This document shows positions 4,656 through 63,931 of a DNA stretch of 64,000 nucleotides, piece after piece. The stretch comes from an uncultured Gammaproteobacteria bacterium (lineage in GTDB: Bacteria > Patescibacteriota > Microgenomatia > UBA8517). The stretch is taken from contig OZ246419.1 of NCBI GenBank assembly GCA_965231135.1, positions 184,754 to 248,753 on the forward strand. The letters are read 5' to 3'. Position 1 is the stretch's first letter. Each line of letters opens with the position of its first letter. A program made the translations under genes and the position numbers. The notes below the pieces were generated by a model, which did not search any database, had not been told where the DNA came from, and saw only the letters and a list, made by a program, of their open reading frames with translations.

Positions 4656-4714
4656 GGCAGGATAGTTATTTCAATATACCATATGAAAGAATGTGAAAGA
4701 ACTATCGCGAAGCG

Positions 4715-4729
4715 ACAAGCTTCGCTTAT
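4715..4729 (-). repeat. stop-codon-embedded hairpin motif ATAAGCGAAGCTTGT at the 3' end of rpsT (a member of the dispersed family)
   Basis: The reverse complement of 4715..4729 reads ATAAGC-GAA-GCTTGT with the rpsT TAA stop inside it. It extends to a 7-bp stem GCGAAGC/GCTTCGC. Confidence 0.5.
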
Positions 4730-6681: not shown

Positions 6682-6683
6682 GC

Positions 6684-6721
6684 TTGACAAGGTCCTAGCA
6701 GTCGTATTATATTAGTGCTAA
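6684..6721 (+). promoter_or_regulatory. sigma70-like promoter (TTGACA, then TTATAT 17 nt later) overlapping CIRCE-like operator no. 1 (CTAGCAGTC-N9-TAGTGCTAA)
   Basis: TTGACA at 6684-6689. The inverted repeat at 6695-6721 resembles the CIRCE consensus TTAGCACTC-N9-GAGTGCTAA. The hrcA ATG at 6723 follows 2 nt later, which implies a leaderless or near-leaderless mRNA. Confidence 0.6.
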
Positions 6722-7487: not shown

Positions 7488-7952
7488 ATGAAACAAAAGA
7501 AACAGGAAAATAAAAAAGAAAATATTGAAGTTGAGATACTTAAAAATCAACTTGCTCGCACTCTTGCTGATTATGATAATCTGCAAAAGAGAACCCAAGA
7601 AGAAAAAATCACATGGATAAAATTTGCAACTGAAAAATTAATTCAAAACCTACTTCCTGTGCTTGATGGTTTTGAAATGGCACAAAAACATTTGAAAGAT
7701 GCTGGGCTTGCAATAACAGTTGGACAATTTAAGGATGTTTTAAAACAAGAAGGACTTGAGGAGATAAATCCAAAAGTTGATGAAACTTTTGATGAAAATA
7801 CAATGGAGGCAATTGAAATAGTTGAAGATAAAGAAAAGAATAATCAAATTGCTGAAGTTTTAACAAATGGATGGAAATTTATGGACGGAATGGTTGTAAG
7901 GCATGCAAGAGTAAAAGTTTTTAAGAAAAATGAGGCTGAAAAAGCCTCTTGA
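7488..7952 (+). CDS. grpE: nucleotide exchange factor GrpE
   Basis: 154-aa protein with a coiled-coil N terminus and a GrpE-like C terminus. It sits between hrcA and dnaK. Confidence 0.85.
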   Translation: MKQKKQENKKENIEVEILKNQLARTLADYDNLQKRTQEEKITWIKFATEKLIQNLLPVLDGFEMAQKHLKDAGLAITVGQFKDVLKQEGLEEINPKVDETFDENTMEAIEIVEDKEKNNQIAEVLTNGWKFMDGMVVRHARVKVFKKNEAEKAS

Positions 7953-7986
7953 CAAGGAATTGGCAGTCGTTATATATTAGTGCTAA
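7949..7986 (+). promoter_or_regulatory. sigma70-like promoter (TTGACA overlapping the grpE stop) plus CIRCE-like operator no. 2 (TTGGCAGTC-N9-TAGTGCTAA)
   Basis: Nearly the same sequence block as the hrcA element. It lies 20 nt upstream of the dnaK ATG. Confidence 0.6.
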
Positions 7987-16496: not shown

Positions 16497-16787
16497 ATGG
16501 CATTACAAATAGACGAGAAACAATCTATAATTAAAAAGTACGCTCGAGAAAAAGGCGATACTGGAAGCCCTGAAGTACAAATTGCGTTACTTACTTCTCA
16601 GATTGAGAAATTAGTAAAACATTTAGGTGAACATGGAAAAGATGTAAACTCAAGACGCGGCCTTTTATCAATGGTTGCAAAGCGACGCAGACTTTTAAGC
16701 TATCTCCAAAAAAGAGATAAAGAGAGATTTGATAAACTCTCACAAGGATTAGGATTAAAGAAATCAAATAAAAATGAAGAAAAATAA
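16497..16787 (+). CDS. rpsO: 30S ribosomal protein S15
   Basis: GDTGSPEVQIALLTSQI...HSRRGLL matches S15. The start is taken at MALQI (ATG at 16497); the track ORF starts from TTG at 16479. Confidence 0.85.
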   Translation: MALQIDEKQSIIKKYAREKGDTGSPEVQIALLTSQIEKLVKHLGEHGKDVNSRRGLLSMVAKRRRLLSYLQKRDKERFDKLSQGLGLKKSNKNEEK

Positions 16788-16814
16788 GCAGAGCTTGTCA
16801 GCTAAAGCTGATAA
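16784..16814 (+). repeat. 31-nt compound palindromic element ATAAGCAGAGCTTGTCAGCTAAAGCTGATAA in the rpsO-pnp spacer
   Basis: It contains the rpsO TAA stop. A copy inside rpoB (37616-37646) matches it at 30 of 31 positions, and shorter copies sit at other gene ends. Confidence 0.6.
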
Positions 16815-16815
16815 C

Positions 16816-19128
16816 ATGATAGAAAAGTCCATTGATCTTGGCGGACGAAAACTTACACTTCAAACAGGAAAAATAGCTGGACAAGCTGATGGAGCAGTTC
16901 TAGCTACATACGGCGAAACAGTAGTGCTTGCGACTGTAGTATCTGCAACCCCAAAAATGGTTGTAGACTTTTTACCTCTAACAGTTGATTATCAGGAAAA
17001 ACTTTATGCTGGAGGAAGGATAAAAGGAAGCAGATGGGTAAAACGAGACGGAAAACCATCTGATGAAGAGATTTTAACTTCAAGAGTAATTGATCGTAGC
17101 ATTAGACCTTTGTTTCCAAAAGAATACCGCAATGAAGTACAGGTTATTGTTACAGTTTTATCAGTAGATAAAGAAAATGATCCAAAAATTGTTGGAGCTA
17201 CTGCAGTTTCTGCAGCACTTGCGATGAGCACTGTTCCTTGGATGGGGCCAGTTGCTCCAATCTGCGTAGGACTTAAAGATGGACAATACATTTTGAATCC
17301 AACAGATTCTCAAATGCAAGAATCAAGTCTTGATCTTGTAGTTTCTGCAACTGACAAAGCAGTTGTAATGGTTGAAGCAGGCGCCGCAGAAGTAAGCGAG
17401 GAAGAAGTACAAAAAGGAATTGCTTTTGCACAGGATGAAGGACAAGTTTTAATAAAATTGATAAATGAATTTGCAAAAGAAGTAGGGAAGACAAAACAAG
17501 TTGTAGTTGAACATAAATACGATAAAACAATTGAAGAGAAAGTTAAAAAGGCAATTGGAAACAAATTTGATGAAATTATTCCTGAAATGGCCACAAAAGA
17601 AATGGCTGGGGGGATGTTTTTTGAACTTAAGAATGCAATAATTGATTCTTTTGAAAAAGATAGCGAAAAAATAGAAGCTGCTGAAGTTTATGAAAAATTA
17701 TTTAAGAAAGCAGTACGAGAAATTTTACTTTCTGGAAAGCGACCAGACGGACGAAGCCACACAGAAATAAGACCAATTTGGATTGAAGTTGGCGTACTTC
17801 CACGAACACACGGATCTGCAATATTTACAAGAGGACAAACACAGGTCCTGTCGATTGCAACTCTTGGAACAAGCCAAGTATCACAACTGCTTGAAACAGC
17901 AGAAGGAGAAGAAGAGAAAAATTACATGCATTACTACACAATGGCTCCTTTTACAACTGGAGAGACCGGAAAAGTAGGATCTCCAAACAGACGCGAAATT
18001 GGACATGGGGCACTTGCAGAGCGAGCATTGCAACCAGTTGTTCCTTCTATGAAAGATTTTCCATATACAATTCAAGTAAATTCTGAAGTCATGAGCTCAA
18101 ATGGTTCAACTTCCATGGCAAGCACCTGCGGAAGCACACTTGCTTTGATGGATGCCGGAGTTCCAATAAAATCTCCAGTTTCAGGAATTGCAATGGGTTT
18201 AATTGTTGAAGATGATAAAAAATATGCAGTATTAACTGACATTATTGGACTTGAAGATTTTAATGGTGACATGGATTTTAAAGTTACAGGGACTGATAAA
18301 GGAATTACTGCACTTCAGCTTGATGTAAAAACTTTACAATTAACTCCTAAAATTTTGGGAGAAGCACTTGAACAATCAAAGGCAGCAAGAAAAGAAATTA
18401 TGGATAAAATAAAAGCTGCAATTGCAGAACCAAGGCAATCAGTTTCAAAATATGCACCAAAGATAAAGACAATCAAAATTGATCCAGCAAAAATCGGCGA
18501 AGTTGTAGGCAGCGGAGGCAAAACAATTAAGAAAATAGTTGCAGAAACTGGAGCTGATGTAAAAGTGGAAGATGATGGAAGCGTAAATATTTCTGCAATT
18601 GACAGTGAGGCAATGCAGAAAGCAGTAGATTGGATTGAAGGACTTGTAAAAGAAGTACAACCTGGAGAAATTTATGAAGGAGAAGTAGTTCGTATTCAGC
18701 CATTTGGAGCTTTTGTACAAATACTTCCAGGCAAAGACGGCATGGTTCATGTATCTGATATGAGCGAGAATCCAGAAGAATTTGTCGACAATGCTGAAAG
18801 CAAAGTAAAAGTAGGAGATAAAGTAAAGGTGAGAGTAAAAGAAGTTGATCAAATGGGCAGAATTAATCTTTCAATGAGAATGGATCCATCGACTGATAAA
18901 CAAAAATCTGACCGCAACGGCGGAGATCGAGGAGGACGTGGAGGCTTCAGAGGAGGAGACAGACGGGGCGGTTTTGGCAGACGAGATGATCGAGGGCCAA
19001 GAAGAAGTTTTGGCGGACAGAGGAGAGATTTTCACAGAAACGATAGAGGATTTTCACGAGGAAGAAATGATGGGGAACAAGGCGGACCTCATTTTCCAGC
19101 TAGCAGATTTGTTGAAGAAAACAAATAA
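16816..19128 (+). CDS. pnp: polyribonucleotide nucleotidyltransferase (PNPase) with a C-terminal RGG-rich tail
   Basis: Two RNase PH domains plus KH and S1 domains. The start is taken at MIEKSIDLGGRKLTLQTGK, which aligns with E. coli PNPase residue 1; the track ORF extends to 16774. The last roughly 75 aa are Arg/Gly-rich. Confidence 0.9.
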   Translation: MIEKSIDLGGRKLTLQTGKIAGQADGAVLATYGETVVLATVVSATPKMVVDFLPLTVDYQEKLYAGGRIKGSRWVKRDGKPSDEEILTSRVIDRSIRPLFPKEYRNEVQVIVTVLSVDKENDPKIVGATAVSAALAMSTVPWMGPVAPICVGLKDGQYILNPTDSQMQESSLDLVVSATDKAVVMVEAGAAEVSEEEVQKGIAFAQDEGQVLIKLINEFAKEVGKTKQVVVEHKYDKTIEEKVKKAIGNKFDEIIPEMATKEMAGGMFFELKNAIIDSFEKDSEKIEAAEVYEKLFKKAVREILLSGKRPDGRSHTEIRPIWIEVGVLPRTHGSAIFTRGQTQVLSIATLGTSQVSQLLETAEGEEEKNYMHYYTMAPFTTGETGKVGSPNRREIGHGALAERALQPVVPSMKDFPYTIQVNSEVMSSNGSTSMASTCGSTLALMDAGVPIKSPVSGIAMGLIVEDDKKYAVLTDIIGLEDFNGDMDFKVTGTDKGITALQLDVKTLQLTPKILGEALEQSKAARKEIMDKIKAAIAEPRQSVSKYAPKIKTIKIDPAKIGEVVGSGGKTIKKIVAETGADVKVEDDGSVNISAIDSEAMQKAVDWIEGLVKEVQPGEIYEGEVVRIQPFGAFVQILPGKDGMVHVSDMSENPEEFVDNAESKVKVGDKVKVRVKEVDQMGRINLSMRMDPSTDKQKSDRNGGDRGGRGGFRGGDRRGGFGRRDDRGPRRSFGGQRRDFHRNDRGFSRGRNDGEQGGPHFPASRFVEENK

Positions 19129-19139
19129 GCAGAGCTTGT
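19125..19139 (+). repeat. stop-embedded motif ATAAGCAGAGCTTGT at the pnp 3' end
   Basis: The same 17-nt AAATAAGCAGAGCTTGT as at the rpsO stop. The pnp TAA lies inside it. Confidence 0.5.
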
Positions 19140-19224
19140 GCCTTCGGCATAATACTTCAGAAGATTTGCATAAATTTTTGTAAAAAATTATTCAGCCTTA
19201 AAAATTTATTACCACTTCCCTATT

Positions 19225-20038: not shown

Positions 20039-21079
20039 ATGGCTCTCAATAATTCTGATTTAAATAATTTAGAAGATAAAATAAATAAAACATATTTACC
20101 TGAAGAACTGAGATCTCAAGTAAATGTGAAACTTAATCAACTTGATAAACTTAGTGGAACTGATGCATTTTTAACTGAAGTAGACAGATTAACCAGTTAT
20201 GTTGATTGGATCACTTCCCTACCTTGGCAAAATCGTACGAAAGATATTTTAGATTTAGATTATGCAAAGAAAGTTTTAGATTCACATCATTATGGCCTTG
20301 GAGAAATTAAAGACAGAATTTTTGAATATTTGTCTGTAATGAAACTAAAAGGAGCCGATACGAAAGATATAGCGAGAGCTCCAATTCTTTGCTTTGTGGG
20401 ACTTGTTGGAACTGGAAAAACGACAATTGCTTTAAGCATTGCTGAAGCTATGGGACGAAAGTTTGCAAGAATTCCCTTTGGAGGAATGGGAGATCCGCTT
20501 GATCTTCGCGGACAATCAAGACTTCATCCTGAAGCAGAACCGGGAAAAATTATAAAAGCACTTCGCACTTGCGGCAGTAAGAATCCTGTAATACTTCTTG
20601 ATGAAATTGATCGTGTAACTGCTGAGGGACGTTCATCGATCATGGGAGTTTTGGTTGAACTTCTTGATCCTGGACAAAATAGTGCATTTGTTGATCATTA
20701 CATAGATTTCCCATTTGATTTGTCTGAAGTGCTTTTTATTGCAACAGCAAATAATACAACAAATATTGCGACAGCAGTATTGGATCGCCTTGAGCCATTA
20801 CAAATGCCAAGTTATACAGATCAGGAAAAAATTATGATTGCAAGGCAATATGTCCTTCCGCATAAAATGAAAGAAGCAGGATTAACTGATCAACAGCTTT
20901 CGTTTGATGAAAATGTTTGGCCGCAAATTGTAAGACCACTTGGCTATGACGGCGGAATTCGTACACTTGAGAGAACAATTGATGGAGTTGTCCGTAAAGT
21001 TGCGAGAGAAATTGTGGAAGGAAAGTCGCAAAGCGTCACGATCTCCCCTACTAATGCCAAGAATTATTTACCACAATGA
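20039..21079 (+). CDS. Lon-family AAA+ ATPase module with no proteolytic domain
   Basis: The sequence YVDWITSLPW...HYGLGEIKDRIFEYLSV, the Walker A motif GLVGTGKTT, the Walker B motif ILLDEIDR and the sensor motif FIATANN align with the LonA ATPase region. The ORF ends before the Ser-Lys protease domain. Confidence 0.8.
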   Translation: MALNNSDLNNLEDKINKTYLPEELRSQVNVKLNQLDKLSGTDAFLTEVDRLTSYVDWITSLPWQNRTKDILDLDYAKKVLDSHHYGLGEIKDRIFEYLSVMKLKGADTKDIARAPILCFVGLVGTGKTTIALSIAEAMGRKFARIPFGGMGDPLDLRGQSRLHPEAEPGKIIKALRTCGSKNPVILLDEIDRVTAEGRSSIMGVLVELLDPGQNSAFVDHYIDFPFDLSEVLFIATANNTTNIATAVLDRLEPLQMPSYTDQEKIMIARQYVLPHKMKEAGLTDQQLSFDENVWPQIVRPLGYDGGIRTLERTIDGVVRKVAREIVEGKSQSVTISPTNAKNYLPQ

Positions 21080-21678
21080 GTAAAAGAGAAGAACTTACTA
21101 AACTTCGAGAGGAAATGCTTAAGGATGATCTGCTTCCACTTAAAAATGGCGCGACGAATCTGGTTTTTGGAAACGGCACACCAAACAGCAAAATACTTTT
21201 TATTGGCGAGGGGCCAGGGTTTAATGAAGATCAACAAGGATTGCCGTTTGTGGGAGCGGCAGGAAAATTACTTGATAAAACTTTGGAATCTATAGGACTA
21301 CATAGAAAAGATGTCTTTGTAACAAATGTGGTGCATCACCGGCCGCCGGAAAATCGCGATCCTCTTCCTGAAGAGCTTGGTGCTTATGGAAAATATTTAG
21401 ATAAAATTATTGAAATAATAAAACCAAAGGTGATTGTGACTTTGGGAAGATTTAGTATGGGGAAATTTTTGTCTGAAGTAAAAATCAGCACTGTTCATGG
21501 AAAAGAAAAAAGAATAAAATGGCATAACTTGAATTTAGTTGTGGTGCCGATGTATCATCCTGCAGCAGCACTTCGAAACGGAAATATGATGACAAGCTTT
21601 AAAGAAGATTTTTTGAAATTACCAAAAATTATTGAAGAGAATACAAAAGAAGAAATGAAACAAGATAGTTTAATATGA
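21076..21678 (+). CDS. family-4 uracil-DNA glycosylase
   Basis: Motif A is GEGPG...PFVGAAG and motif B is HPAAALRNG. An ATGA overlap couples it to the Lon-like gene. Confidence 0.8.
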   Translation: MSKREELTKLREEMLKDDLLPLKNGATNLVFGNGTPNSKILFIGEGPGFNEDQQGLPFVGAAGKLLDKTLESIGLHRKDVFVTNVVHHRPPENRDPLPEELGAYGKYLDKIIEIIKPKVIVTLGRFSMGKFLSEVKISTVHGKEKRIKWHNLNLVVVPMYHPAAALRNGNMMTSFKEDFLKLPKIIEENTKEEMKQDSLI

Positions 21679-23351
21679 GTCTTAAATTTATACCAATATC
21701 TGGAACAACTGGAGTTACTGAGAACTGCTATGTCTATGAGTCAGGTGACTCAATGATTGTAGTTGACTGCGGAGTTGGTTTTCCAGAACCTGAAATGTAC
21801 GGAGTTGATTTAATTATTCCGGACTTTACTTATATAAAAGAAAATAAAAATAAATTGAAGGGAATTTTTATTACTCATGGGCATGAAGATCATATTGGTG
21901 CTCTCCCCTTTTTACTTAAAGATGTTCAAGCTCCGATTTATGCAACTAAGTTAGTGGCAGCTTTTATTCAAGATAAATTTGAGGACTATGAAACTGCCGC
22001 TCCTAAAGTCACAATAATTGATCCGGAGAAAGATGTGATTGCGGCAGGGCCTTTTAAAGTAAGCAGTTTTAGAATTTCACACAGCGTTCCGGACGGCGTT
22101 GGTTTTTGTATAGAAACTCCCGAAGGAAAAGCTTTCCATGTACCGGATTATAAATTTGACTGGACCCCAGTTGACGGAAGACCTTTTGATGTACAACGAG
22201 CTGCTATTTTGGCTGCGGGAGGAAATACTTTAATGCTTGCATCTGATGCACTTGGAGCGACGAGCCCGGGCCATACTGAAAGCGAAGCTTCGCTTGAGGG
22301 GAAAATTTACAATATTGCTGAGAAAGCAAAAGGGCAAATATTTTTTACAACTATTTCTTCAAACATATCGCGCATGCAGCAAGCAATTAATGTGGCACAA
22401 AAACTAAACCGTAAAGTTGTTTTTGTGGGACGTTCGATAGATCGAAAAGCAAATATTGCGAAGAACTTAGGGTTTTTGAGTTATCCAAATGGTTTAGTTA
22501 TAAGTGCCAAGCAGGCAGGAAAGCTAAATGATAAGCGGAGCTTGTCACTTCGTGATAATCAAATAATGTACATAATATCAGGAAGTTATGGGCAGCCAGG
22601 AAGTGCACTTTATCGTGTTGCTTTAAATGAGCATGAATTTTTAAGTATTGCTAAAGATGATGTGGTGATATTTTCTTCAGATCCTGCGCCGCCAGGGAGC
22701 AAAACAAATGTTGATTTTGTAGTAGATCATATTATCGAAGACGGAGCTGATGTGCATTATTATGATTTACAGGAAGATCTTCATGTATCAGGACACGGGT
22801 GTATTGAGGATATTAAATTTTTATTTGGAATAATTAAACCAAAATATTTTGTGCCAATTGGAGGAACGATAAGACATAACAGAGAATATGCTCGAATAGC
22901 TGAAGATATGGGAAATGATATTCGTAATGTATTTCAATTAAAAGAAGGAGATGTTTTAGAATTTATAAACAAAAATGCACAAATTAATGGACATATTCCT
23001 GTAAAAAGCGTTTTAGTTGACGGACTTGGAGTTGGCGATGTTGGAAATGTAGTACTACGAGACCGCAATGTTTTAGCGAGAGAAGGAGTTGCAATTGCGA
23101 TAATACAAGTAGACTCTGCTACGCAAAAGATTGTAGATGCACCGGAAATAATTTCAAGAGGATTTGTATTCAGCGGAAAAAGTACTGGGCTACTTCAGGA
23201 AGCAGGAAAGGCTCTGATGCAGAATTTACAAAAGAAAAATCAGATGGATGGAAAGGTGGCGAAGGATGCAAGCGTTGATTTTCTTGAAAGATATTTCTTT
23301 GAGAAACTGCAGAGAAGGCCAATGATTTTACCTGTGATTGTGGAAGTATGA
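21675..23351 (+). CDS. rnj: ribonuclease J
   Basis: Metallo-beta-lactamase HGHEDHIG plus the beta-CASP domain and a C-terminal domain, 558 aa in total. Confidence 0.9.
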   Translation: MSLKFIPISGTTGVTENCYVYESGDSMIVVDCGVGFPEPEMYGVDLIIPDFTYIKENKNKLKGIFITHGHEDHIGALPFLLKDVQAPIYATKLVAAFIQDKFEDYETAAPKVTIIDPEKDVIAAGPFKVSSFRISHSVPDGVGFCIETPEGKAFHVPDYKFDWTPVDGRPFDVQRAAILAAGGNTLMLASDALGATSPGHTESEASLEGKIYNIAEKAKGQIFFTTISSNISRMQQAINVAQKLNRKVVFVGRSIDRKANIAKNLGFLSYPNGLVISAKQAGKLNDKRSLSLRDNQIMYIISGSYGQPGSALYRVALNEHEFLSIAKDDVVIFSSDPAPPGSKTNVDFVVDHIIEDGADVHYYDLQEDLHVSGHGCIEDIKFLFGIIKPKYFVPIGGTIRHNREYARIAEDMGNDIRNVFQLKEGDVLEFINKNAQINGHIPVKSVLVDGLGVGDVGNVVLRDRNVLAREGVAIAIIQVDSATQKIVDAPEIISRGFVFSGKSTGLLQEAGKALMQNLQKKNQMDGKVAKDASVDFLERYFFEKLQRRPMILPVIVEV

Positions 23352-29422: not shown

Positions 29423-29455
29423 ATAAGCTGAGCTTGTAACACTGCGTGTTATAAT
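29423..29455 (+). promoter_or_regulatory. motif copy ATAAGCTGAGCTTGTA followed by an extended -10 (TGtTATAAT) that gives a leaderless alaS transcript
   Basis: TGTTATAAT at 29447-29455. The alaS ATG at 29462 sits where the transcription start is expected. Confidence 0.4.
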
Positions 29456-35778: not shown

Positions 35779-38700
35779 ATGGCAAATAAACAAAATCGCC
35801 GCAATTTTGGCAGAACAGAAAACAATTTACCTGAGCTTGATTTGTCTTTGGTTCAAAGACAATCTTGGGATTGGTTTTTAAAAGAAGGAATTTCGGAAGA
35901 ACTTACAAATATTTCTCCAGTTGAAGATTTTGCAGGAAAAAATTGGGAACTTTCTTTTGGTAAACATACTCTTGAAGCCTCTCAAGTTACCCCAAAAGAA
36001 GCAAGAGAAAAAGGAATAACATACTCAACTCCATTTAAAGTCGAAACAACACTCACAAATAAAAGAACAGGAGCATCTGTCACACAGGAAGTTTTCTTTG
36101 GAAATATTCCACAAATGACAACTGTTGGAACATTTATTATTAATGGAATTGAAAGAACTGTTATTAACCAAATCGTTCGAAGCCCAGGAGCATATTTCTC
36201 AGGAACTTTGGATGCAGCAAGCGGCCGTATGCTTTATAAAGCAGAAATAAGACCACTTCATCACGGAAGCTGGCTTGAATTTGAAACTGGACGAAACGAT
36301 GTTATTTCAGCTCGCATTGATCGACGCCGAAAGGTAAATGCCGCAACCATACTTCGCGCTCTTGGAATTTATTCAAATGATGAAATTACAAGAATTTTTG
36401 CTGATGTGAATAAAGACGGAAATCATAATTATGTACAAAAGACTATTGAAAAAGATCCAACAAGAACAAGAGAAGATGCACTTCTTGAAATTTACAAGAA
36501 ACTTCGACCTGGAGAACCAGCTCTTTTGGATAATGCAGAAACACTTTTCCATAACCTTTTCTTTGATAACCGCCATTACGACTTAGGAAAAGTTGGAAGA
36601 TATAAAATTAATAAGAGATTAGGACTTAATGTTGAAAATAATAAACAAAACTGGGTACTTACAAAAGATGATATTGTCCAAACACTTCATTATTTAATTG
36701 GACTTCAAAATGGAATTGGACGAGTTGATGATATTGACCATCTTTCAAACAGACGCCTTCGATGTGTCGGGGAACTTGTTGCAACTCATGCATTTCGTAC
36801 AGGACTTTTAAGACTTGAAAGATCTATAAAAGAGAAAATGTCTTTGGTTTCTCAAGAAGAAAAACCAAATCCATCAGCTTTAATTAACGCAAGACCATTA
36901 ATCGCTTCTTTGAATGAATTTTTCAGAAGCAATCAGCTTTCAACAATACTTGATAATACAAATCCACTTTCAGAAATAGATAATTTACGAAGAGTATCTG
37001 TTTTAGGACCTGGAGGAATTAATCGAGAACGTGCGAGCTTTTCAATCCGAGACGTTAATCCTTCTCAATATGGAAGAATTGATCCTGTCAGGTCTCCAGA
37101 AGGAATGAACATTGGACTTGTTACTTATTTAACTCTTTATGCACGTGTAAACGAATTTGGATTTATTGAGACACCTTACAAAAAAGTTGATAATAGAAAA
37201 ATTACTAATGAAATTGTTTATTTAACTGCTGACGATGAAGAGAAATATTACATTACTCACAACGGAATTAATATTGATGACAGCGGAAAAATAACAGACG
37301 ACAGAGTTGCTATCCGATATGCAGGAAACTTTACAGAAGGATCTTCAAAGTTGGTTCAATATATCGATTTGACACCAAGGCAGGTATTTGGAGCATCTGC
37401 ATCTTTAATTCCTTTCCTTGACCACGATGAAGGAAACCGTGCTCTTATGGGAAGTAACATGCAATGTCAGGCTGTTCCACTTGTTGCGCCAAGCTCACCA
37501 GTTGTTGGAACAGGAATGGAAGCGACTGTTGCCTCTTCAATGGGAAGAGTTGTAAAAGCTGAATATCCAGGAACTGTTTCTTTTGTTGATGCAGACAAAA
37601 TTGAAATTAAACTTGATAAGCAAAGCTTGTCAGCTAAAGCTGATAAAAAATTGCCTGACGATGCTGTTTTGTCTAGAGATGGTAAAACAATTACTTATTA
37701 TTTGACTAAATTCTGGAGAACTTCACAATCAACTTGTTATAACCAGAAAGCTAAAGTAGTTCTCGGACAGAAATTAAACCCTGGAGACTTAATAATTGAT
37801 GGACCTGCTACAGAAGACGGAGAACTTGCACTGGGTCAAAATTTAGTTGTAGCTTATGCATCAATTTCCGGATACGGATTTGAAGATGCAATTTTGATTT
37901 CTGACAGAATAGTTAAGGATGACCTACTTACTTCAATTAACATTCGTGAATATACAGCTGACGTTGTTGAAACAAAACTTGGACCTGAAGTTGTTACAAA
38001 AGATATTCCAAACGTTTCTGAAGACCAATTAGCTAATTTGGCAAGTGATGGAATTGTTGTTGTCGGAGCTGAAGTTCATCCAAATGACATCTTGGTCGGA
38101 AAAATTGCACCAAAAGGTGAAATGGAACTTACTGCAGAAGAAAGACTTCTTCGTGCTATCTTTGGAGAGAAAGCAAGAGAAGTCCGAGATACATCACTTC
38201 GAGTGCCACACGGAGAAGAAGGAATTGTTATTGATGTACAAGTACTTAGCAAAGAAAAAGGAGATGAACTTGCACCTGGAGTAATATCTTCTGTAATTGT
38301 TAAAGTTGCACAACTTCGTAAAGTAACTGTAGGAGACAAAATTGCAGGGCGACATGGAAACAAAGGTGTTATTTCAAAAATAATGCCTGAAGCTGATATG
38401 CCTTACTTGCCAGATGGAACTCCAGTTGATTTGGTTATATCACCTCTTTCGGTACTTGCTCGTATGAATCTTGGACAATTACTCGAATGTCATTTGGGAT
38501 GGGCACTTGATAAGAATCATTCGAAAGCAAGCGTACCTGTCTTTGATAAGATTCCAGAAAGCAAGATTCACGATGAACTTAAAGAGGCTGGACTTCCAGT
38601 TTCTGGAAAAACAAGACTTATTGATGGAAGAACTGGAGAGGCACTTTCTGAAGATACAGTTGTTGGAATTGGATACATCATGAAGCTTAAGCACATGATT

Positions 38701-46141: not shown

Positions 46142-46414
46142 ATGGAAAATATTTCTAGAAGAGGAGTCGGATTTAGATTGGATAGTCGCAAAATTGGCGA
46201 AGAAGTTACTATTGTTCCAAGAAGTGTTGATCAATTGACAATGAATTATGTTGTCTTGGTTGTGGATCGTAAAGATTCAAAAAAACAACCAGGTAATCCC
46301 ATGATTAAGGTGAGGTTTGCGAATCAGGGTGGTAGTGGTTTTTATCTTGGCGGAGGTACGGCAGCCGTACCAGTTAAAACTTCATTTATAGGTCTTTCTG
46401 AAGAAGATTTCTAA
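46142..46414 (+). CDS. hypothetical 90-aa protein (inserted between fusA and tuf)
   Basis: No motif. It starts 3 nt after the fusA stop. Confidence 0.35.
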   Translation: MENISRRGVGFRLDSRKIGEEVTIVPRSVDQLTMNYVVLVVDRKDSKKQPGNPMIKVRFANQGGSGFYLGGGTAAVPVKTSFIGLSEEDF

Positions 46415-46440
46415 CGTGGAAAAGCTAAAGCATAAAATAA

Positions 46441-46941
46441 ATGAAAAGATCTTCAATTCCTAAGGAATTAGAACGTGAAGTTCTAGTTGAAGCTGGTCAC
46501 AGATGTGCGATTCCTACTTGTCAGAGAACTCCCGTAGAAATAGCTCATATAGATCCATGGTTTAAAGTGAAAGAGCATAGATTTGAAAATTTGATTGCTC
46601 TTTGTCCAAATTGTCATGATAGATATGATAAAAAACATGAAATTGATAGGAAATCTATGCTTCGATATAAAGCTAATCTTTCGGTAATTAATAATAGATA
46701 TGGCGACCTAGAGAAAAGAATACTTACACTTTTTGCTGAAAGTCCAAATGATGAATTTGTTTGGGTTGTTGGAGGATTGGATATATTATTAATGTATTTA
46801 TTGAGAGATGGATTATTAGTTCCTTCAGGTAAGGATAGTGGAGTTATACTTTCCGGTATTCCTTCTGCTAAAGAATATCGTTTGACTACAAAAGGCAGAG
46901 GGTTTGTTAATAACTGGGTTTCACCAAGAAAATTAAGTTGA
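46441..46941 (+). CDS. HNH endonuclease
   Basis: EAGHRCAIPTC...EIAHIDPW...NLIALCPNCHDRYD is a Cys4 HNH core. A C-terminal domain of about 80 aa follows. Confidence 0.7.
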   Translation: MKRSSIPKELEREVLVEAGHRCAIPTCQRTPVEIAHIDPWFKVKEHRFENLIALCPNCHDRYDKKHEIDRKSMLRYKANLSVINNRYGDLEKRILTLFAESPNDEFVWVVGGLDILLMYLLRDGLLVPSGKDSGVILSGIPSAKEYRLTTKGRGFVNNWVSPRKLS

Positions 46942-49261: not shown

Positions 49262-49930
49262 ATGATAAATAAAGTCCTTGGAATTAAAAAAGAAATGGGA
49301 GCTACTTTTAACGAAGGAGTAAGAGTTCCTGTGACTAAAGTTGCAATTGAAAATTGTGTTGTGACTGAAGTCAAAACACAAGACCGTGACGGCTACTGGT
49401 CAGTCCAACTTGGTGTAGGACACAAGAAAGCAAAGAATATTACCAAACCAATGAAAGGCCATCTTCTCAAAACAAAAGACGCAAAAGAAACTCCAAAATA
49501 TTTACCAAGATTTATTAAAGAAATAAGAACTCAAGAAGAACCTACGGAAAAAGTCGGAAATGAAATAAAAGCTTCCGACATTTTTGTTTCTGGAGATAAG
49601 GTTAGCGTTACTGGAGTTTCTAAGGGAAAAGGGTTTGCTGGAGGAGTTAAAAGGTGGCACTTTAGAGGAGGAAGCAAGACTCATGGACAATCAGACCGTT
49701 GGAGAGCACCAGGATCAATTGGACAAGGAACAACTCCAGGAAGAGTTTATAAAGGCAAACACATGGCAGGACACATGGGAGTAGAACAAATAAAAGTTAA
49801 AGGACTCAAAATAGTTTCAGTTGATGCAGAAAAGAATGAAATACTTGTAAGCGGAGCAATTCCAGGAACAGTCGGAGGTTTAGTAATTCTTGAAAGAATT
49901 GGAGAAAGAAAGGAACAAGCAAATGCTTAA
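49262..49930 (+). CDS. rplC: 50S ribosomal protein L3
   Basis: MINKVLGIKKEMG...VPVTKV...GKGFAGGVKRW. The start is taken at the internal ATG at 49262. Confidence 0.9.
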   Translation: MINKVLGIKKEMGATFNEGVRVPVTKVAIENCVVTEVKTQDRDGYWSVQLGVGHKKAKNITKPMKGHLLKTKDAKETPKYLPRFIKEIRTQEEPTEKVGNEIKASDIFVSGDKVSVTGVSKGKGFAGGVKRWHFRGGSKTHGQSDRWRAPGSIGQGTTPGRVYKGKHMAGHMGVEQIKVKGLKIVSVDAEKNEILVSGAIPGTVGGLVILERIGERKEQANA

Positions 49931-50555
49931 AGTAGATTCATATTCAGCAAAAGGAATTAAAGGGACAACACAGGTAAACTTGCCAAAAGAATGGGAAGCT
50001 GAAGCAAACGAAAGTTTACTTGCACAAGCAATTCGAGTTTACGATGACCGAAATCATATTGGACTTCGTAAAGCAAAAACTCGAGCTGAAGTTTTAAGAA
50101 CTGGTAAAAAACTTTACAGCCAGAAAGGAACTGGAGGAGCAAGACATGGATCAAGAAGAGCACCTGTATTTGTTGGCGGAGGAGTCGCTTTAGGACCTCG
50201 ACCAGTAAAAAGAGAATTAACTTTATCGACAGCTTTGAAGCGAAAAGCAATTGCTGTAACGATGACAATGGCTGTTAAAGAAAAAAGAGTGATAGTAAGT
50301 GATATGAATTTTGCTAAGACAAAAGACGCAAATAATTTTATTGAAAAAGTTTTAGGAAAAAATACAAAGATGGTTACTTTTGTAATTGCAAAAGATAACT
50401 TTAAAAATGAAAAGTTTTTAAGAAATATAGAAAAAGCACGAGTAAATGTTTTTCCAAGCATTAATGCATATGATATTTATTTTGGAGGAAATATAGTTTT
50501 GGACAAAGCAATTTTTGGAAAAGAAGAAAAGAAAGGAAAACAAATAAGCAAATAA
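49923..50555 (+). CDS. rplD: 50S ribosomal protein L4
   Basis: KGTGGARHGSRRAPVFVGGG. The ATG at 49923 overlaps the rplC stop. Confidence 0.85.
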   Translation: MLKVDSYSAKGIKGTTQVNLPKEWEAEANESLLAQAIRVYDDRNHIGLRKAKTRAEVLRTGKKLYSQKGTGGARHGSRRAPVFVGGGVALGPRPVKRELTLSTALKRKAIAVTMTMAVKEKRVIVSDMNFAKTKDANNFIEKVLGKNTKMVTFVIAKDNFKNEKFLRNIEKARVNVFPSINAYDIYFGGNIVLDKAIFGKEEKKGKQISK

Positions 50556-50567
50556 GAATTTGCTTGT
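50544..50567 (+). repeat. long variant of the stop-embedded hairpin, ATAAGCAAATAAGAATTTGCTTGT, followed by GATTACA (rplD-rplW spacer)
   Basis: 10-bp stem with an AAGA loop. The rplD TAA stop is in the stem. An identical 24-mer sits at 55131-55154. Confidence 0.55.
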
Positions 50568-50579
50568 GACGATTACATC

Positions 50580-52376: not shown

Positions 52377-53027
52377 ATGGGACAGAAAGTTAATCCAATA
52401 GGATTTAGAACAGGAAGATTTATATCCTGGAAATCAAGATGGTTTGATGAGGGAACTGATTATAAGAACTTTTTGGTTGAGGATGTAAAACTACGCGAAA
52501 TGTTAATGGAAAAATTGAAGCTTGCTGGAATAGAAACCGTTGAAATTGAAAGATTGCCAAAGGCAATTGTTATAACTCTTTATGTAGCAAGACCTGGAGT
52601 TGTTATCGGACGAGGCGGAAGCGGAATTGAAGAGATTAAAAAGCAAGTTGTTGCTTTGATGAGAACATTAAGGGGCGGAAAAGCAGTACAAACGAAAATT
52701 GATTTACATGTAAATGAAATCAAAAATCCAGATTTGAGCGCTTATTTAGTAGCTGGCAGAGTTATTTCAGATCTTGAACGCCGTATGCCATCAAGAAGAG
52801 TTGCTACAAAAGCGATGGAAAAAGTAATGCAATCTGGAGCTAAGGGAGTAAAAATAGTTTTTGCAGGACGTGTTAATGGAGCTGATATCGGACGTACTGA
52901 AGCTTATCATGTAGGAAGCGTCCCAACTCAAACATTAAGAAAAGAAATTGATTATGCAGAAATGCCAGCGCTTTTGAAAAGAGGATATGTAGGAGTTAAG
53001 GTTTGGATTTATAAGGAGGAAAAATAA
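52377..53027 (+). CDS. rpsC: 30S ribosomal protein S3
   Basis: MGQKVNPIGFR has the KH fold, and GRGGSGIEEIKK follows. Confidence 0.9.
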   Translation: MGQKVNPIGFRTGRFISWKSRWFDEGTDYKNFLVEDVKLREMLMEKLKLAGIETVEIERLPKAIVITLYVARPGVVIGRGGSGIEEIKKQVVALMRTLRGGKAVQTKIDLHVNEIKNPDLSAYLVAGRVISDLERRMPSRRVATKAMEKVMQSGAKGVKIVFAGRVNGADIGRTEAYHVGSVPTQTLRKEIDYAEMPALLKRGYVGVKVWIYKEEK

Positions 53028-53039
53028 GCGAAAGCTTGT
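53024..53039 (+). repeat. stop-embedded hairpin ATAAGC-GAAA-GCTTGT at the rpsC 3' end
   Basis: 6-bp stem with a GAAA tetraloop. The rpsC TAA lies inside the 5' arm. Confidence 0.5.
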
Positions 53040-53049
53040 GTAAACATAA

Positions 53050-53463
53050 ATGTTACAGCCAAAAAGAAGTAAATATCGAAAAGCATTTAGAGGAAGAAGA
53101 AGAGGATTATCCTCAAGAGGATCGACACTTGCTTTTGGAGAATTTGGAATTAAAGCATTAGAACATTCTTGGATGAGTGCAGCACAGATGGAAGCAGTAA
53201 GGCGCACTGTAACAGGAGATATGAAGAGAAAAGGAAGAGTATGGTTAAGAGTCTTTCCTGATAAGCCAGTTACTGCACGCGCTGCAGGACAACGTATGGG
53301 AAGCGGAAAAGGAGAGATTGACAGGTATGTTATGGTTGTAAGACCAGGAAGAATGATTTTGGAAGTTGCAGGAGTTGATGAATTAACAGCACGCAAAGCT
53401 TTAAGAGGCGCAACTTATAAAATGCCTTTTAAATCAAGAATTATTGCGAAGGGAGAACTTTAA
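53050..53463 (+). CDS. rplP: 50S ribosomal protein L16
   Basis: MLQPKRSKYRK...RMGSGKGEID. Confidence 0.9.
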   Translation: MLQPKRSKYRKAFRGRRRGLSSRGSTLAFGEFGIKALEHSWMSAAQMEAVRRTVTGDMKRKGRVWLRVFPDKPVTARAAGQRMGSGKGEIDRYVMVVRPGRMILEVAGVDELTARKALRGATYKMPFKSRIIAKGEL

Positions 53464-54585: not shown

Positions 54586-55142
54586 GTTTACAAGAAGATT
54601 ATAAAAAAACAATTAAAGATGAGTTAGTTAAAGAATTTGCTATTAAAAATGTGATGGCAATTCCAAAATTGACTAAAATTGTTGTGAACTGCGGAACTGG
54701 AGAAGCTTTGAAGAGTAAAGAAATTGCAACACAAATTGCAGAAGATTTAGCAACAATTACTGGGCAAAAAGTAAAAATTACTAAAGCAAGAGTTTCGATT
54801 GCAGGATTTAATTTGAGACTTGGAATGAATGTGGGAATGGTTGTGACACTTCGCGGAAAGCGAATGTATGATTTTTACGAAAAATTGGTTAAAATAGTGC
54901 TTCCAAGACTAAGAGATTTTAGAGGAGTGCCTTTGAAAAGTTTTGATCAGGCAGGAAATTATACTTTGGGAATTGTAGAGCATACAGTTTTTCCTGAAAT
55001 TGATTTGGCAAAAGTTACAAATCCACGAGGAATGGAAATCACTTTTGTAACAAATGTAAAAAATGTAGAGCAATCGAGAAAATTATTGGAATTAATGGGA
55101 ATGCCGTTTGAAAAACTTGAAAGGAGAAATATAAGCAAATAA
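54582..55142 (+). CDS. rplE: 50S ribosomal protein L5
   Basis: PKLTKIVVNCGTGEA...GMEITFVT. Confidence 0.9.
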   Translation: MSLQEDYKKTIKDELVKEFAIKNVMAIPKLTKIVVNCGTGEALKSKEIATQIAEDLATITGQKVKITKARVSIAGFNLRLGMNVGMVVTLRGKRMYDFYEKLVKIVLPRLRDFRGVPLKSFDQAGNYTLGIVEHTVFPEIDLAKVTNPRGMEITFVTNVKNVEQSRKLLELMGMPFEKLERRNISK

Positions 55143-55154
55143 GAATTTGCTTGT
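55131..55154 (+). repeat. second copy of the long stop-embedded hairpin ATAAGCAAATAAGAATTTGCTTGT, followed by GATTACA (rplE-rpsN spacer)
   Basis: Identical 24-mer to 50544-50567. The rplE TAA is in the stem. Confidence 0.55.
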
Positions 55155-55168
55155 AATTGATTACAATT

Positions 55169-63078: not shown

Positions 63079-63503
63079 TGAAGAATTTGTTTGTTTCATA
63101 CCAACCTAAAGCAAAAGAAGTAAAAAGAGACTGGAAGCTATTTGATGCAAAAGATCAAGTACTTGGCAGACTTGCAACTCAAATAGCAATGTCTCTTATG
63201 GGTAAAACTAAAGCTACCTACAGCCCACATATGGACAATGGAGATAATGTGGTTGTAATTAATGCAGCAGAAATTACTGTAACAGGCAAAAAAGCTGAAC
63301 AAAAGAGATATTACGGACATTCAGGATATCCTGGAGGATTTAAAGATATATCTTATGCTCATATGAAGGCAACTCATCCAGAAAGAATAATTGAATTAGC
63401 TGTAAAAAGAATGTTACCTGAAAATCGTTTGAGAGATAAAAGAATGGCAAGACTTTTTATAAGCAATGATAGTAATAATCCAAAGAAGGAAATGTTTAAA
63501 TAA
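63075..63503 (+). CDS. rplM: 50S ribosomal protein L13
   Basis: WKLFDAKDQVLGRLATQIA...GDNVVVINA. Confidence 0.9.
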   Translation: MMKNLFVSYQPKAKEVKRDWKLFDAKDQVLGRLATQIAMSLMGKTKATYSPHMDNGDNVVVINAAEITVTGKKAEQKRYYGHSGYPGGFKDISYAHMKATHPERIIELAVKRMLPENRLRDKRMARLFISNDSNNPKKEMFK

Positions 63504-63931
63504 TGGCAACTAAAAAGAATTACACTTATGGAGTAGGTAAGCGAAAAAACGCTTCTGCAAGAGTGCGACTTTATAAGCAAAGCTTGCACGGCGATGCCGG
63601 TAAAGGAAGCGAGGAAAATACAGTAAACGGACAAGTTGTCGGAAAATATTTTCCAGGAGATGCTGCAAGAGTTTCCTGGAGCAAACCGCTTGAACTACTG
63701 ATGTTAACTGATAAATATTTCTTTACAGCAAGAGTTACTGGAGGAGGAAAAGAAGGACAACTTGATGCAGTAGTTCATGGGCTTTCAAGAGCTCTTTCAA
63801 AAGTAAAAACAGAACACCGTCAGCCTCTTAAAAAAGCAGGACTCTTGAAAAGAGATTCAAGAGAACGCGAAAGAAGAAAGATGAACACTGGTGGAAAAGC
63901 GAGACGTCGTAAGCAATCTCCAAAACGTTAA
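63503..63931 (+). CDS. rpsI: 30S ribosomal protein S9 (with an internal insertion)
   Basis: YGVGKRKNASARV...ARRRKQSPKR. It overlaps rplM in a TAATG arrangement. Confidence 0.9.
   Translation: MATKKNYTYGVGKRKNASARVRLYKQSLHGDAGKGSEENTVNGQVVGKYFPGDAARVSWSKPLELLMLTDKYFFTARVTGGGKEGQLDAVVHGLSRALSKVKTEHRQPLKKAGLLKRDSRERERRKMNTGGKARRRKQSPKR

Follow-up and report, generated by a model that had tools for sequence, protein, structure and literature searches.

A tiny hairpin repeat on stop codons and, in frame, within rpoB, RNase J and rpsI of a Microgenomatia genome

Introduction

Several kinds of short repeated element are known from the gene boundaries, and in some cases from the genes, of bacteria. 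[quoted passage not shown] Interspersed repetitive units of mycobacteria (MIRUs) insert at gene boundaries within operons, in the direction of transcription, while sparing the expression of their neighbours (PMC12548453). Here, we describe a much smaller repeat in a 64,000-nucleotide stretch of DNA from an uncultured bacterium of the Microgenomatia (Patescibacteriota, UBA8517; assembly GCA_965231135.1, contig OZ246419.1, positions 184,754 to 248,753), which we call the window. The source is a small groundwater bacterium, which relatives of its EF-G place among Microgenomates/Woesebacteria-like genomes. A reading of the letters and open reading frames (ORFs) alone, below the sequence-only reading, had pointed to a 31-nt sequence within rpoB that recurs between rpsO and pnp.

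We know of no repeat family described for Patescibacteria, and a keyword search of full-text literature found no description of repeats like this one in the group. Below we show that the 31-nt sequence belongs to a family of at least ten copies, compare filled and empty sites between strains and relatives, and weigh the explanations for its presence in an essential gene. Related loci are cited by our numbers (L001 and so on) where they must be told apart.

Results

A 31-nt sequence in rpoB recurs at the rpsO/pnp junction

The sequence ATAAGCAAAGCTTGTCAGCTAAAGCTGATAA at 37616-37646 (plus strand) is identical at 30 of 31 positions to 16784-16814, with an A/G difference at the remaining position. 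This match, reported by the sequence-only reading, proved correct and is far outside chance expectation (0.00 in 100 dinucleotide-preserving shuffles, allowing up to 3 mismatches); in an exact-repeat census the pair is the longest dispersed near-exact repeat of the window, one 24-mer excepted. The rpoB copy (copy f, 37617..37646, plus strand; TAA-GCAAAGC-TTGTCAGC-taaa-GCTGATAA) indeed lies in frame, within a fused rpoB-rpoC ORF of 2333 aa (HWA52200.1; 35779..42780, plus strand). It was recovered in assemblies from two further sequencing runs, and is therefore not an assembly error.

The insert had been read as ten codons; the unit that fits an insertion is 27 nt, or nine codons. We infer that these are positions 37620-37646, bearing a GATAA direct repeat at both edges and adding QSLSAKADK to the protein. 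With the 27 nt removed, rpoB reads KLDKKLPDD, in agreement with the KLDKK of relatives, whose beta subunits continue with 19-21 more variable residues. The loop corresponds to about residues 736-749 of E. coli beta, as derived from an alignment range of 649-848. Solved polymerases show gaps of 9-20 residues there, with the cyanobacterial enzyme as long as that of the window, and among relatives the loop differs in length. Copy f sits in a length-variable loop of beta, where it is probably tolerated as a passenger; an AlphaFold model of the beta fragment was too poor (mean pLDDT 59.7) for placing the insert. The alignment of relatives that had been suggested as a check for an indel thus shows a loop of varying length, and the 27-nt indel itself was not seen in it directly. 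Orthologous rpoB genes lack the added residues, whereas coincidental convergence would have left them in place.

The fused ORF has no stop between its two parts. In L003, L004, L018 and L019, where the whole gene lies in the locus, the rpoB ORF ends separately after ~1130-1180 aa, and the fusion therefore appears to be specific to the window's lineage.

A family of at least ten copies

The sequence-only reading described two copies, but the window holds at least ten of one repeat. The pattern TAAGC-N(1-25)-GCTTGT matches 10 times in the window against 1.16 expected, and a fuller descriptor, requiring in addition a perfect hairpin of 5 bp or more from TTG onwards, matches 8 times against 0.2 in 300 simulations; a one-mismatch search added the tenth copy, in rpsI. 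One pattern match, at 49915 on the minus strand, was set aside as chance: it has no second hairpin and lies antisense within a gene. A descriptor built on the second hairpin alone was discarded as unspecific (135 matches).

All copies follow one layout: (A)TAA, GC-loop-GC, TTG(T/C), a variable stem-loop-stem, and (A/G)TAA. Element size is 22-32 nt counting one flanking TAA, with a core of 19-29 nt. The seven non-coding copies cover this whole range (22-32 nt for core plus one TAA) and show no preference for multiples of three. The three intragenic copies measure 27, 24 and 27 nt (rpoB, RNase J and rpsI, respectively) and share a reading frame, K(Q/R)SL..., in which the TAA is split across codons. 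Seven copies lie on, or at most 3 nt from, the stop of a gene running in the same direction: rpsT, rpsO, pnp, a 101-aa ORF before alaS, rplD, rpsC and rplE.

The 9.8 kb to the left of the window contain no further copy. The shared 23-mer, scanned for as an exact match (as a 19-mer among viral contigs), was found in no GTDB genome, JGI metagenome or viral contig, sets outside which the source genome and its close kin lie. Rfam 15 gave no match at gathering score over the window and none at the element sites at E<=10. We take this repeat to be specific to the Microgenomates (Patescibacteria) lineage of the window.

Filled and empty sites in rpsI and RNase J

The strongest evidence for insertion is a polymorphism between strains in rpsI. 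Copy k (63574..63603, plus strand; TAAGCAAAGC-TTGC(A)CGGC-gat-GCCGGTAA) lies in frame in this gene (ribosomal protein S9, 63503-63931). A sister strain, ~99.3% identical to the window (L090), is without exactly 27 nt of rpsI, 63574-63600; its S9 has 133 aa rather than 142 and reads LYKGTE where the window has LYKQSLHGDAGKGSE. The empty allele is TTTA-TAA-AGG and the filled allele TTTA-TAA-[24 nt]-TAA-AGG. The element therefore lands at TAA: one TAA stands at the empty site, and one on either side of the 24-nt core at the filled site. Target-site duplication and insertion 3' of the TAA by an element that itself ends in TAA would leave the same trace and are not distinguishable here. Judging from sequence, the same change from one TAA to two would apply at the S3/L16 and L14/L24 junctions.

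Contigs from run SRR12170516 are ~99.3-99.5% identical to the window. Over the ~11.5 kb compared with the sister strain, rpsI and S3/L16 are the sole structural differences, everything else being point substitutions. Run SRR12170514 represents the window strain itself, with 0 differences in the contigs compared; it carries the rpoB copy and the start of copy k, where its contig ends inside the element. Look-ups of L23 and of the 142-aa S9 returned no record.

RNase J gives a second intragenic case. Copy d (22532..22558, plus strand; region NDKRSLSLRDNQ) lies in frame in an ORF with a Pfam RNase J match (21675-23351) and comprises 24 nt, or eight codons, flanked by GATAA. The RNase J of L082 and L085 reads KLNK--------DQILY against KLNDKRSLSLRDNQIMY in the window, exactly eight residues fewer, and the same eight-residue gap is found in B. 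subtilis RNase J1 (PDB 3zq4). Taking out the 24 nt between the GATAA repeats restores KLNDNQIM.

Copies at gene ends

At the remaining sites the element is woven into the end of a gene. Its leading TAA is the stop codon of the upstream gene in rpsT, rpsO, pnp, rpsC and, in relatives, rplN, and in five copies the next start codon follows 0-7 nt after the element. Copy a (4702..4728) lies on the minus strand, its TAA closing the minus-strand gene rpsT (S20). Copy b (16785..16814, plus strand) is the near-twin of copy f at the rpsO/pnp junction, and copy c (19126..19152, plus strand) takes its TAA from the pnp stop. Copies b and c have 17 nt in common (AAATAAGCAGAGCTTGT); the second hairpin of copy c, TTGTGCC-ttc-GGCATAA, differs from that of copy b. 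Copy e (29424..29454, plus strand) begins 3 nt after the TAG stop of the 101-aa ORF and ends 7 nt before the alaS ATG, with a second hairpin of 9 bp. Copy h (50545..50577, plus strand), between rplD (L4) and rplW (L23), has a long first hairpin, AAGCAAAT-aaga-ATTTGCTT, and shares a 24-nt exact repeat, ATAAGCAAATAAGAATTTGCTTGT, with copy j (55132..55166, plus strand), between rplE (L5) and rpsN (S14). The reading frames of L4 and L5 run into these two copies and stop at the TAA of the first loop, both proteins ending ...ISK*. The TAA of copy i (53025..53049, plus strand) is the rpsC (S3) stop, and the ATG of rplP (L16) follows directly. At S3/L16 and L5/S14, AAGGAG(G) stands just 5' of the element, and the next ATG 0-2 nt past the second hairpin.

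Three genes that bear the element end in similar codons (GAAGAAAAATAA, GAAGAAAACAAATAA and GAGGAAAAATAA), and on this sequence likeness the element may reach a few bases beyond the TAA on its 5' side. S15 carries a Lys/Asn/Glu-rich C-terminal extension of ~7-10 residues (window 16740-16787; L001 1730-1767), in comparison with L082 and L085, where the protein ends ...LGLEK.

The copy at rpsO/pnp had been called intergenic, which holds only in part. The rpsO stop TAA (16785-16787; S15 is HWA52220.1) lies inside 16784-16814, and the deposited pnp coding sequence (PNPase, HWA52219.1) starts at an ATG at 16774, overlaps rpsO and reads copy b in the same frame as rpoB reads copy f. If the alternative ATG at 16816 is used, which gives the N-terminus MKKIEK... 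of relatives, a 28-nt spacer remains. An ENA groundwater contig from a related species (L001, ERR2108712 / ERZ978390; PNPase N-terminal fragment 84-86% identical to that of the window) carries the same element at rpsO/pnp (1764-1794), and its sole upstream in-frame pnp ATG overlaps rpsO. The L001 element, CAAAGCTTGTCAGCTAAAGCTGATAAAAA, has 29 nt identical to the rpoB copy and is closer to it than the window's own copy b; the rpoB copy retains CAAAGC, the state at rpsO/pnp of L001. Elsewhere in the L001 pnp gene, at 2261-2263, an in-frame TAA stands where the window has AAA (Lys), and the called protein is cut to 168 aa; a sequencing error, a pseudogene and a variant of the strain are all possible causes.

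Junctions in strains and relatives

Ribosomal-protein junctions that are filled in the window are in many cases empty elsewhere. S3/L16 and L5/S14 are short and element-free in all relatives compared (the closest GTDB genomes, L002-L019); at S3/L16, for example, L006 reads GAGGAATAAAAAATG against GGAAAAATAA[GCGAAAGCTTGTGTAAACATAA]ATG in the window. L4/L23 is empty in the three relatives in which both flanking genes were matched, and the rpsO/pnp junction is element-free in L082 and L085. Conversely, the L14/L24 junction is empty in the window (TAAATG), L003 and L009, whereas in L004 and L005 the rplN stop there bears an element, TAAGCAAAGC-TTGC...GTAA. In the SRR12170516 strain, copy i is replaced by an unrelated hairpin, GGAGTTCGTTAATTTTTTAACGAAAAAATTACG (L095, 625-690, corresponding to about 53010-53050 of the window).

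In that same contig S3 ends KGVR instead of K, and its hairpin was not found elsewhere among the DNA compared. L005 has another, longer AT-rich palindromic repeat at S3/L16 and L14/L24 (~20760-20850; CCAATAA...ATACAAAT...GGAAATTTG(G)AA(A)TT...GGTA), and L009 and L019 carry inserts of 130-140 nt at ribosomal-protein junctions. In this group, repeats in general seem to settle at the gene junctions of these operons.

Two adjacent hairpins, always in the sense of the mRNA

The sequence-only reading described two nested palindromes. They are in fact adjacent and have the central TTGT in common: hairpin 1 forms when the central GCTTG(T) pairs with the upstream (A)TAAGC, and the base of hairpin 2 when its TTG(T) pairs with the downstream (A)TAA instead. 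TTG(T/C) is thus complementary to both flanking (A)TAA sequences, and predicted minimum-energy folds alternate between the two pairings at similar energies, from -6 to -12 kcal/mol. Across 10 distinct versions of hairpin 2, counted with a hand-made descriptor (MAFFT failed to align the variable stems), 71 of 72 pairs are canonical or G-U. Positions 4-8 are occupied by several different Watson-Crick pairs, that is, by compensatory changes, and the orthologous L14/L24 hairpins of L004 and L005 likewise differ by compensatory substitutions. A G-T wobble at position 3 restricts the fold to the sense strand. Each of the ten copies is oriented with transcription, and this holds for the minus-strand copy a too. 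The window has a positive GC skew throughout, and copy a runs against the replication-strand pattern.

Other repeats and a candidate homing endonuclease

Three further features of the window stand apart from this family. Positions 860-1800 hold imperfect, 12-nt-periodic G/T-rich repeats (GGTGTTGG-like; our families D1-D3 and D5) within minus-strand ORFs, which by their sequence suggest a repetitive low-complexity protein. A 39-nt repeat, 85% identical between 6683-6721 and 7948-7986, lies upstream of hrcA and dnaK and combines promoter-like hexamers (TTGACA...TATATT) with a CIRCE-like inverted repeat, TAGCAGTCG-N-TTAGTGCTAA; it is probably the ordinary HrcA heat-shock operator. Between fusA and tuf in the str operon (46142-46941) are a 166-aa ORF with an HNH endonuclease match (PF01844), which may be a free-standing homing endonuclease, and a 90-aa ORF without a Pfam match.

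Discussion

A tiny insertional repeat at TAA

We consider it probable that the 31-mer in rpoB arose by duplicative insertion of a very short repeated element of the REP/MITE kind. Of the two options offered by the sequence-only reading, the first, in which a small mobile or structured element entered an essential gene in frame, is supported by the family of copies, by the RNase J and rpsI insertions and by the empty junctions. We propose that the element copies itself, or is copied, into TAA sites, and that selection would then remove insertions unless they restore the stop at the end of a gene or lengthen a tolerant loop by a stop-free multiple of three. Those that persist do no harm: seven sit on or near stop codons that the insertion regenerated or supplied, and three are in-frame, stop-free multiples of three. 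At least two of the three intragenic sites, those in rpoB and RNase J, are places where protein length varies.

For rpoB, this model would have 27 nt enter at the TAA of GAT-AAA and lengthen KLDKKLPDD, with the nine added residues presumably having no role in RNA polymerase. The source would be the rpsO/pnp copy or a parent common to both, and an empty allele would join ...CTTGATAA|AAAATTGCC, again encoding KLDKKLPDD. Copying might proceed through a transposase encoded elsewhere in the genome and acting on single-stranded hairpins, or through hairpin-promoted template switching. The hairpins may be kept because an unfolded insert would disturb the translation signals of its neighbours or the element's own propagation.

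Several observations weigh against this model. No empty rpoB allele was found, look-ups with S12, YceG and a 67-aa neighbour having returned the window's own strain only, and the closest rpoB relatives are just 57-74% identical around the insert, with loops of unequal length. With neither an empty allele nor an ortholog above 74% identity to hand, the rpoB indel is read by analogy with rnj, the RNase J gene, and rpsI. The analysis covered ~74 kb of the 810,692-bp contig, and no transposase is among the Pfam-annotated genes over ~55 kb of it (from ~10 kb left of the window to ~45,600); the rest of the window holds, where genes were called, ribosomal-protein and other housekeeping genes. Terminal inverted repeats are absent, on inspection, from the cores of copies f, i and k, and only copy a shows GCGAAGC...GCTTCGC. 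Finally, the strict orientation, the position of copy a against the GC skew and the strand-specific fold fit a constraint at the level of RNA as well as, or better than, a parasite acting purely at the level of DNA.

Competing explanations

These last points lead directly to an account in which the element is a working cis-acting RNA signal: a site for a ribonuclease or RNA-binding protein, a stabiliser of mRNA 3' ends, or a loop-out that keeps a Shine-Dalgarno sequence near the next start. Under it, the rpoB, rnj and pnp copies would be kept to tie the expression of genes for RNA synthesis and RNA decay to one factor. All ten copies read in the mRNA sense, even that at rpsT, despite the single direction of replication that the GC skew implies; G-U wobbles confine the hairpin to the sense strand, L004 and L005 show compensatory changes at an orthologous site, and AAGGAG(G) and ATG bracket the element at S3/L16 and L5/S14. 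Three copies touch genes of RNA metabolism, and the rpsO/pnp copy differs by 2 changes in 31 nt between the window and L001, within surrounding DNA that is ~78% identical (by eye on the alignment). Yet the same junctions work without the element in relatives, and the sister strain has no rpsI copy and an unrelated hairpin at S3/L16, and individual copies are therefore dispensable, across genera as well as strains. No Rfam family matches, the hairpins are weak, and the window is rich in housekeeping genes in any case. The conservation of the rpsO/pnp copy is not out of the ordinary and counts as weak evidence, another exact interspecies run of 23 nt being found in plain coding sequence. We regard a working RNA signal as improbable. 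Of the sequence-only reading's second option, that the same RNA or DNA signal is needed at both rpoB and rpsO/pnp, the conserved pairing and orientation stand, and there is no other positive evidence for it.

The rpoB patch could instead record a one-off replication error, in which the nascent strand left rpoB at GATAA for the rpsO/pnp hairpin, 20.8 kb distant, copied 27 nt there and came back at GATAA, or an equivalent gene conversion. Hairpin-forming sequences are known hot spots of template switching, the identity block is bounded by (G)ATAA on both sides at both loci, and one specific copy elsewhere is almost the same as the patch. Two other intragenic sites, however, repeat this architecture, with the same flanks and frame and a different hairpin 2, and it is met again at the ends of seven genes and at a further junction in other genomes, which argues for a recurrent, TAA-selective process rather than a single accident. 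A single template switch from rpsO/pnp at GATAA microhomology is untenable given the family of copies, and we judge a one-off origin very improbable; template switching itself could still be the general copying mechanism of the family. Chance convergence or an assembly artefact we consider barely conceivable. The genome is AT-rich, and short-read Logan contigs are prone to breaking at such repeats (L091 stops within copy k, at window position 63598, and L099 starts just after copy h, at ~50587), but shuffled sequences yield no such match, the reading frame is intact, and the NCBI record has the same sequence, as do assemblies from two other runs.

A more speculative reading can also be framed. 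An ultra-small mobile element of a new kind would find TAA, most safely that of a stop codon, by means of an internal TTG(T/C) guide and rebuild the stop codon on landing; alternatively or in addition, its copies would serve as a shared host RNA tag on rpoB, rnj and pnp transcripts. We put this forward tentatively and think it unlikely as a whole, although the complementarity of TTG to both TAAs is suggestive, at the level of sequence, of guide-target recognition.

Significance

Patescibacteria have tiny, streamlined genomes with almost no intergenic space. In the genome studied here, an element of 22-32 nt accounts for both structural differences between two strains ~99.3% identical over 11.5 kb, adds peptide segments to RNA polymerase beta, RNase J and S9, and rewrites the C-termini of L4 and L5. 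Selfish or semi-selfish DNA would thus persist in a packed genome by way of stop codons and tolerant protein loops, and the element would be a source of lineage-specific inserts in core proteins. What sets it apart is its very small size, its use of stop codons, its presence in frame in three essential genes of a 64-kb stretch and the direct polymorphism between strains of a bacterium with a reduced genome. There is also a practical side, since such repeats break short-read assemblies and shift predicted gene starts, as at pnp.

Comparison with known elements

The element's position past stop codons and its hairpins might recall an intrinsic terminator, but no copy is followed by a run of T, and in five copies a start codon stands 0-7 nt downstream. 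Like MIRUs, the non-coding copies are intercistronic and oriented with their operon (7 of 7). MIRUs differ in being 40-100 bp long, often in tandem arrays, with a small internal ORF coupled to the next gene; the element described here is single at each site, hairpin-based and anchored to the upstream stop, and by inspection has no linking internal ORF. With MITEs that make a 3-bp TAA/TTA duplication (Tourist-like, related to IS5/Harbinger), it shares a non-autonomous nature, an AT-rich target and stem-loops, as well as a TAA at either edge of the filled site against a single one at the empty site, and a presence that differs between strains. It is, however, far smaller than these and has no terminal inverted repeats. 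RPEs offer a parallel for translated copies, the window's element likewise lying in frame in housekeeping genes and being translated. They belong to an alphaproteobacterial genus and measure ~100-150 bp, whereas the inserts in this Patescibacteria genome are of 24-27 nt, or 8-9 codons, and most copies are on stop codons; no sequence relation was seen, and no comparison with RPE consensus sequences was run. The complementarity between TTG and TAA bears no more than a resemblance to the guide-target recognition of the single-strand IS200/IS605 and REP-RAYT systems.

In its behaviour, the element is most like the repetitive extragenic palindromic (REP) elements of Enterobacteria and Pseudomonas, which are associated with bacterial interspersed mosaic elements (BIMEs) and with the RAYT transposase. 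REPs differ from it in their conserved motif, which is GT(A/G)G rather than (A)TAAGC-N-GCTTG(T/C), and in their pairing, copies here being single. They are also extragenic, whereas here three copies are translated in frame, two more supply the last codons of L4 and L5, and the stop codon is part of the element. No RAYT gene is among the Pfam matches of the called genes in the ~74 kb available. We know of no REP in which an internal TTG is described as pairing with a TAA at the flank. In both cases, nevertheless, an imperfect palindrome lies beside a conserved linear motif, within a unit of tens of nucleotides, and many dispersed copies stand just past stop codons in operons, their stems covarying from copy to copy. 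By size, hairpin and gene-end position, REP elements are thus its closest described counterparts.

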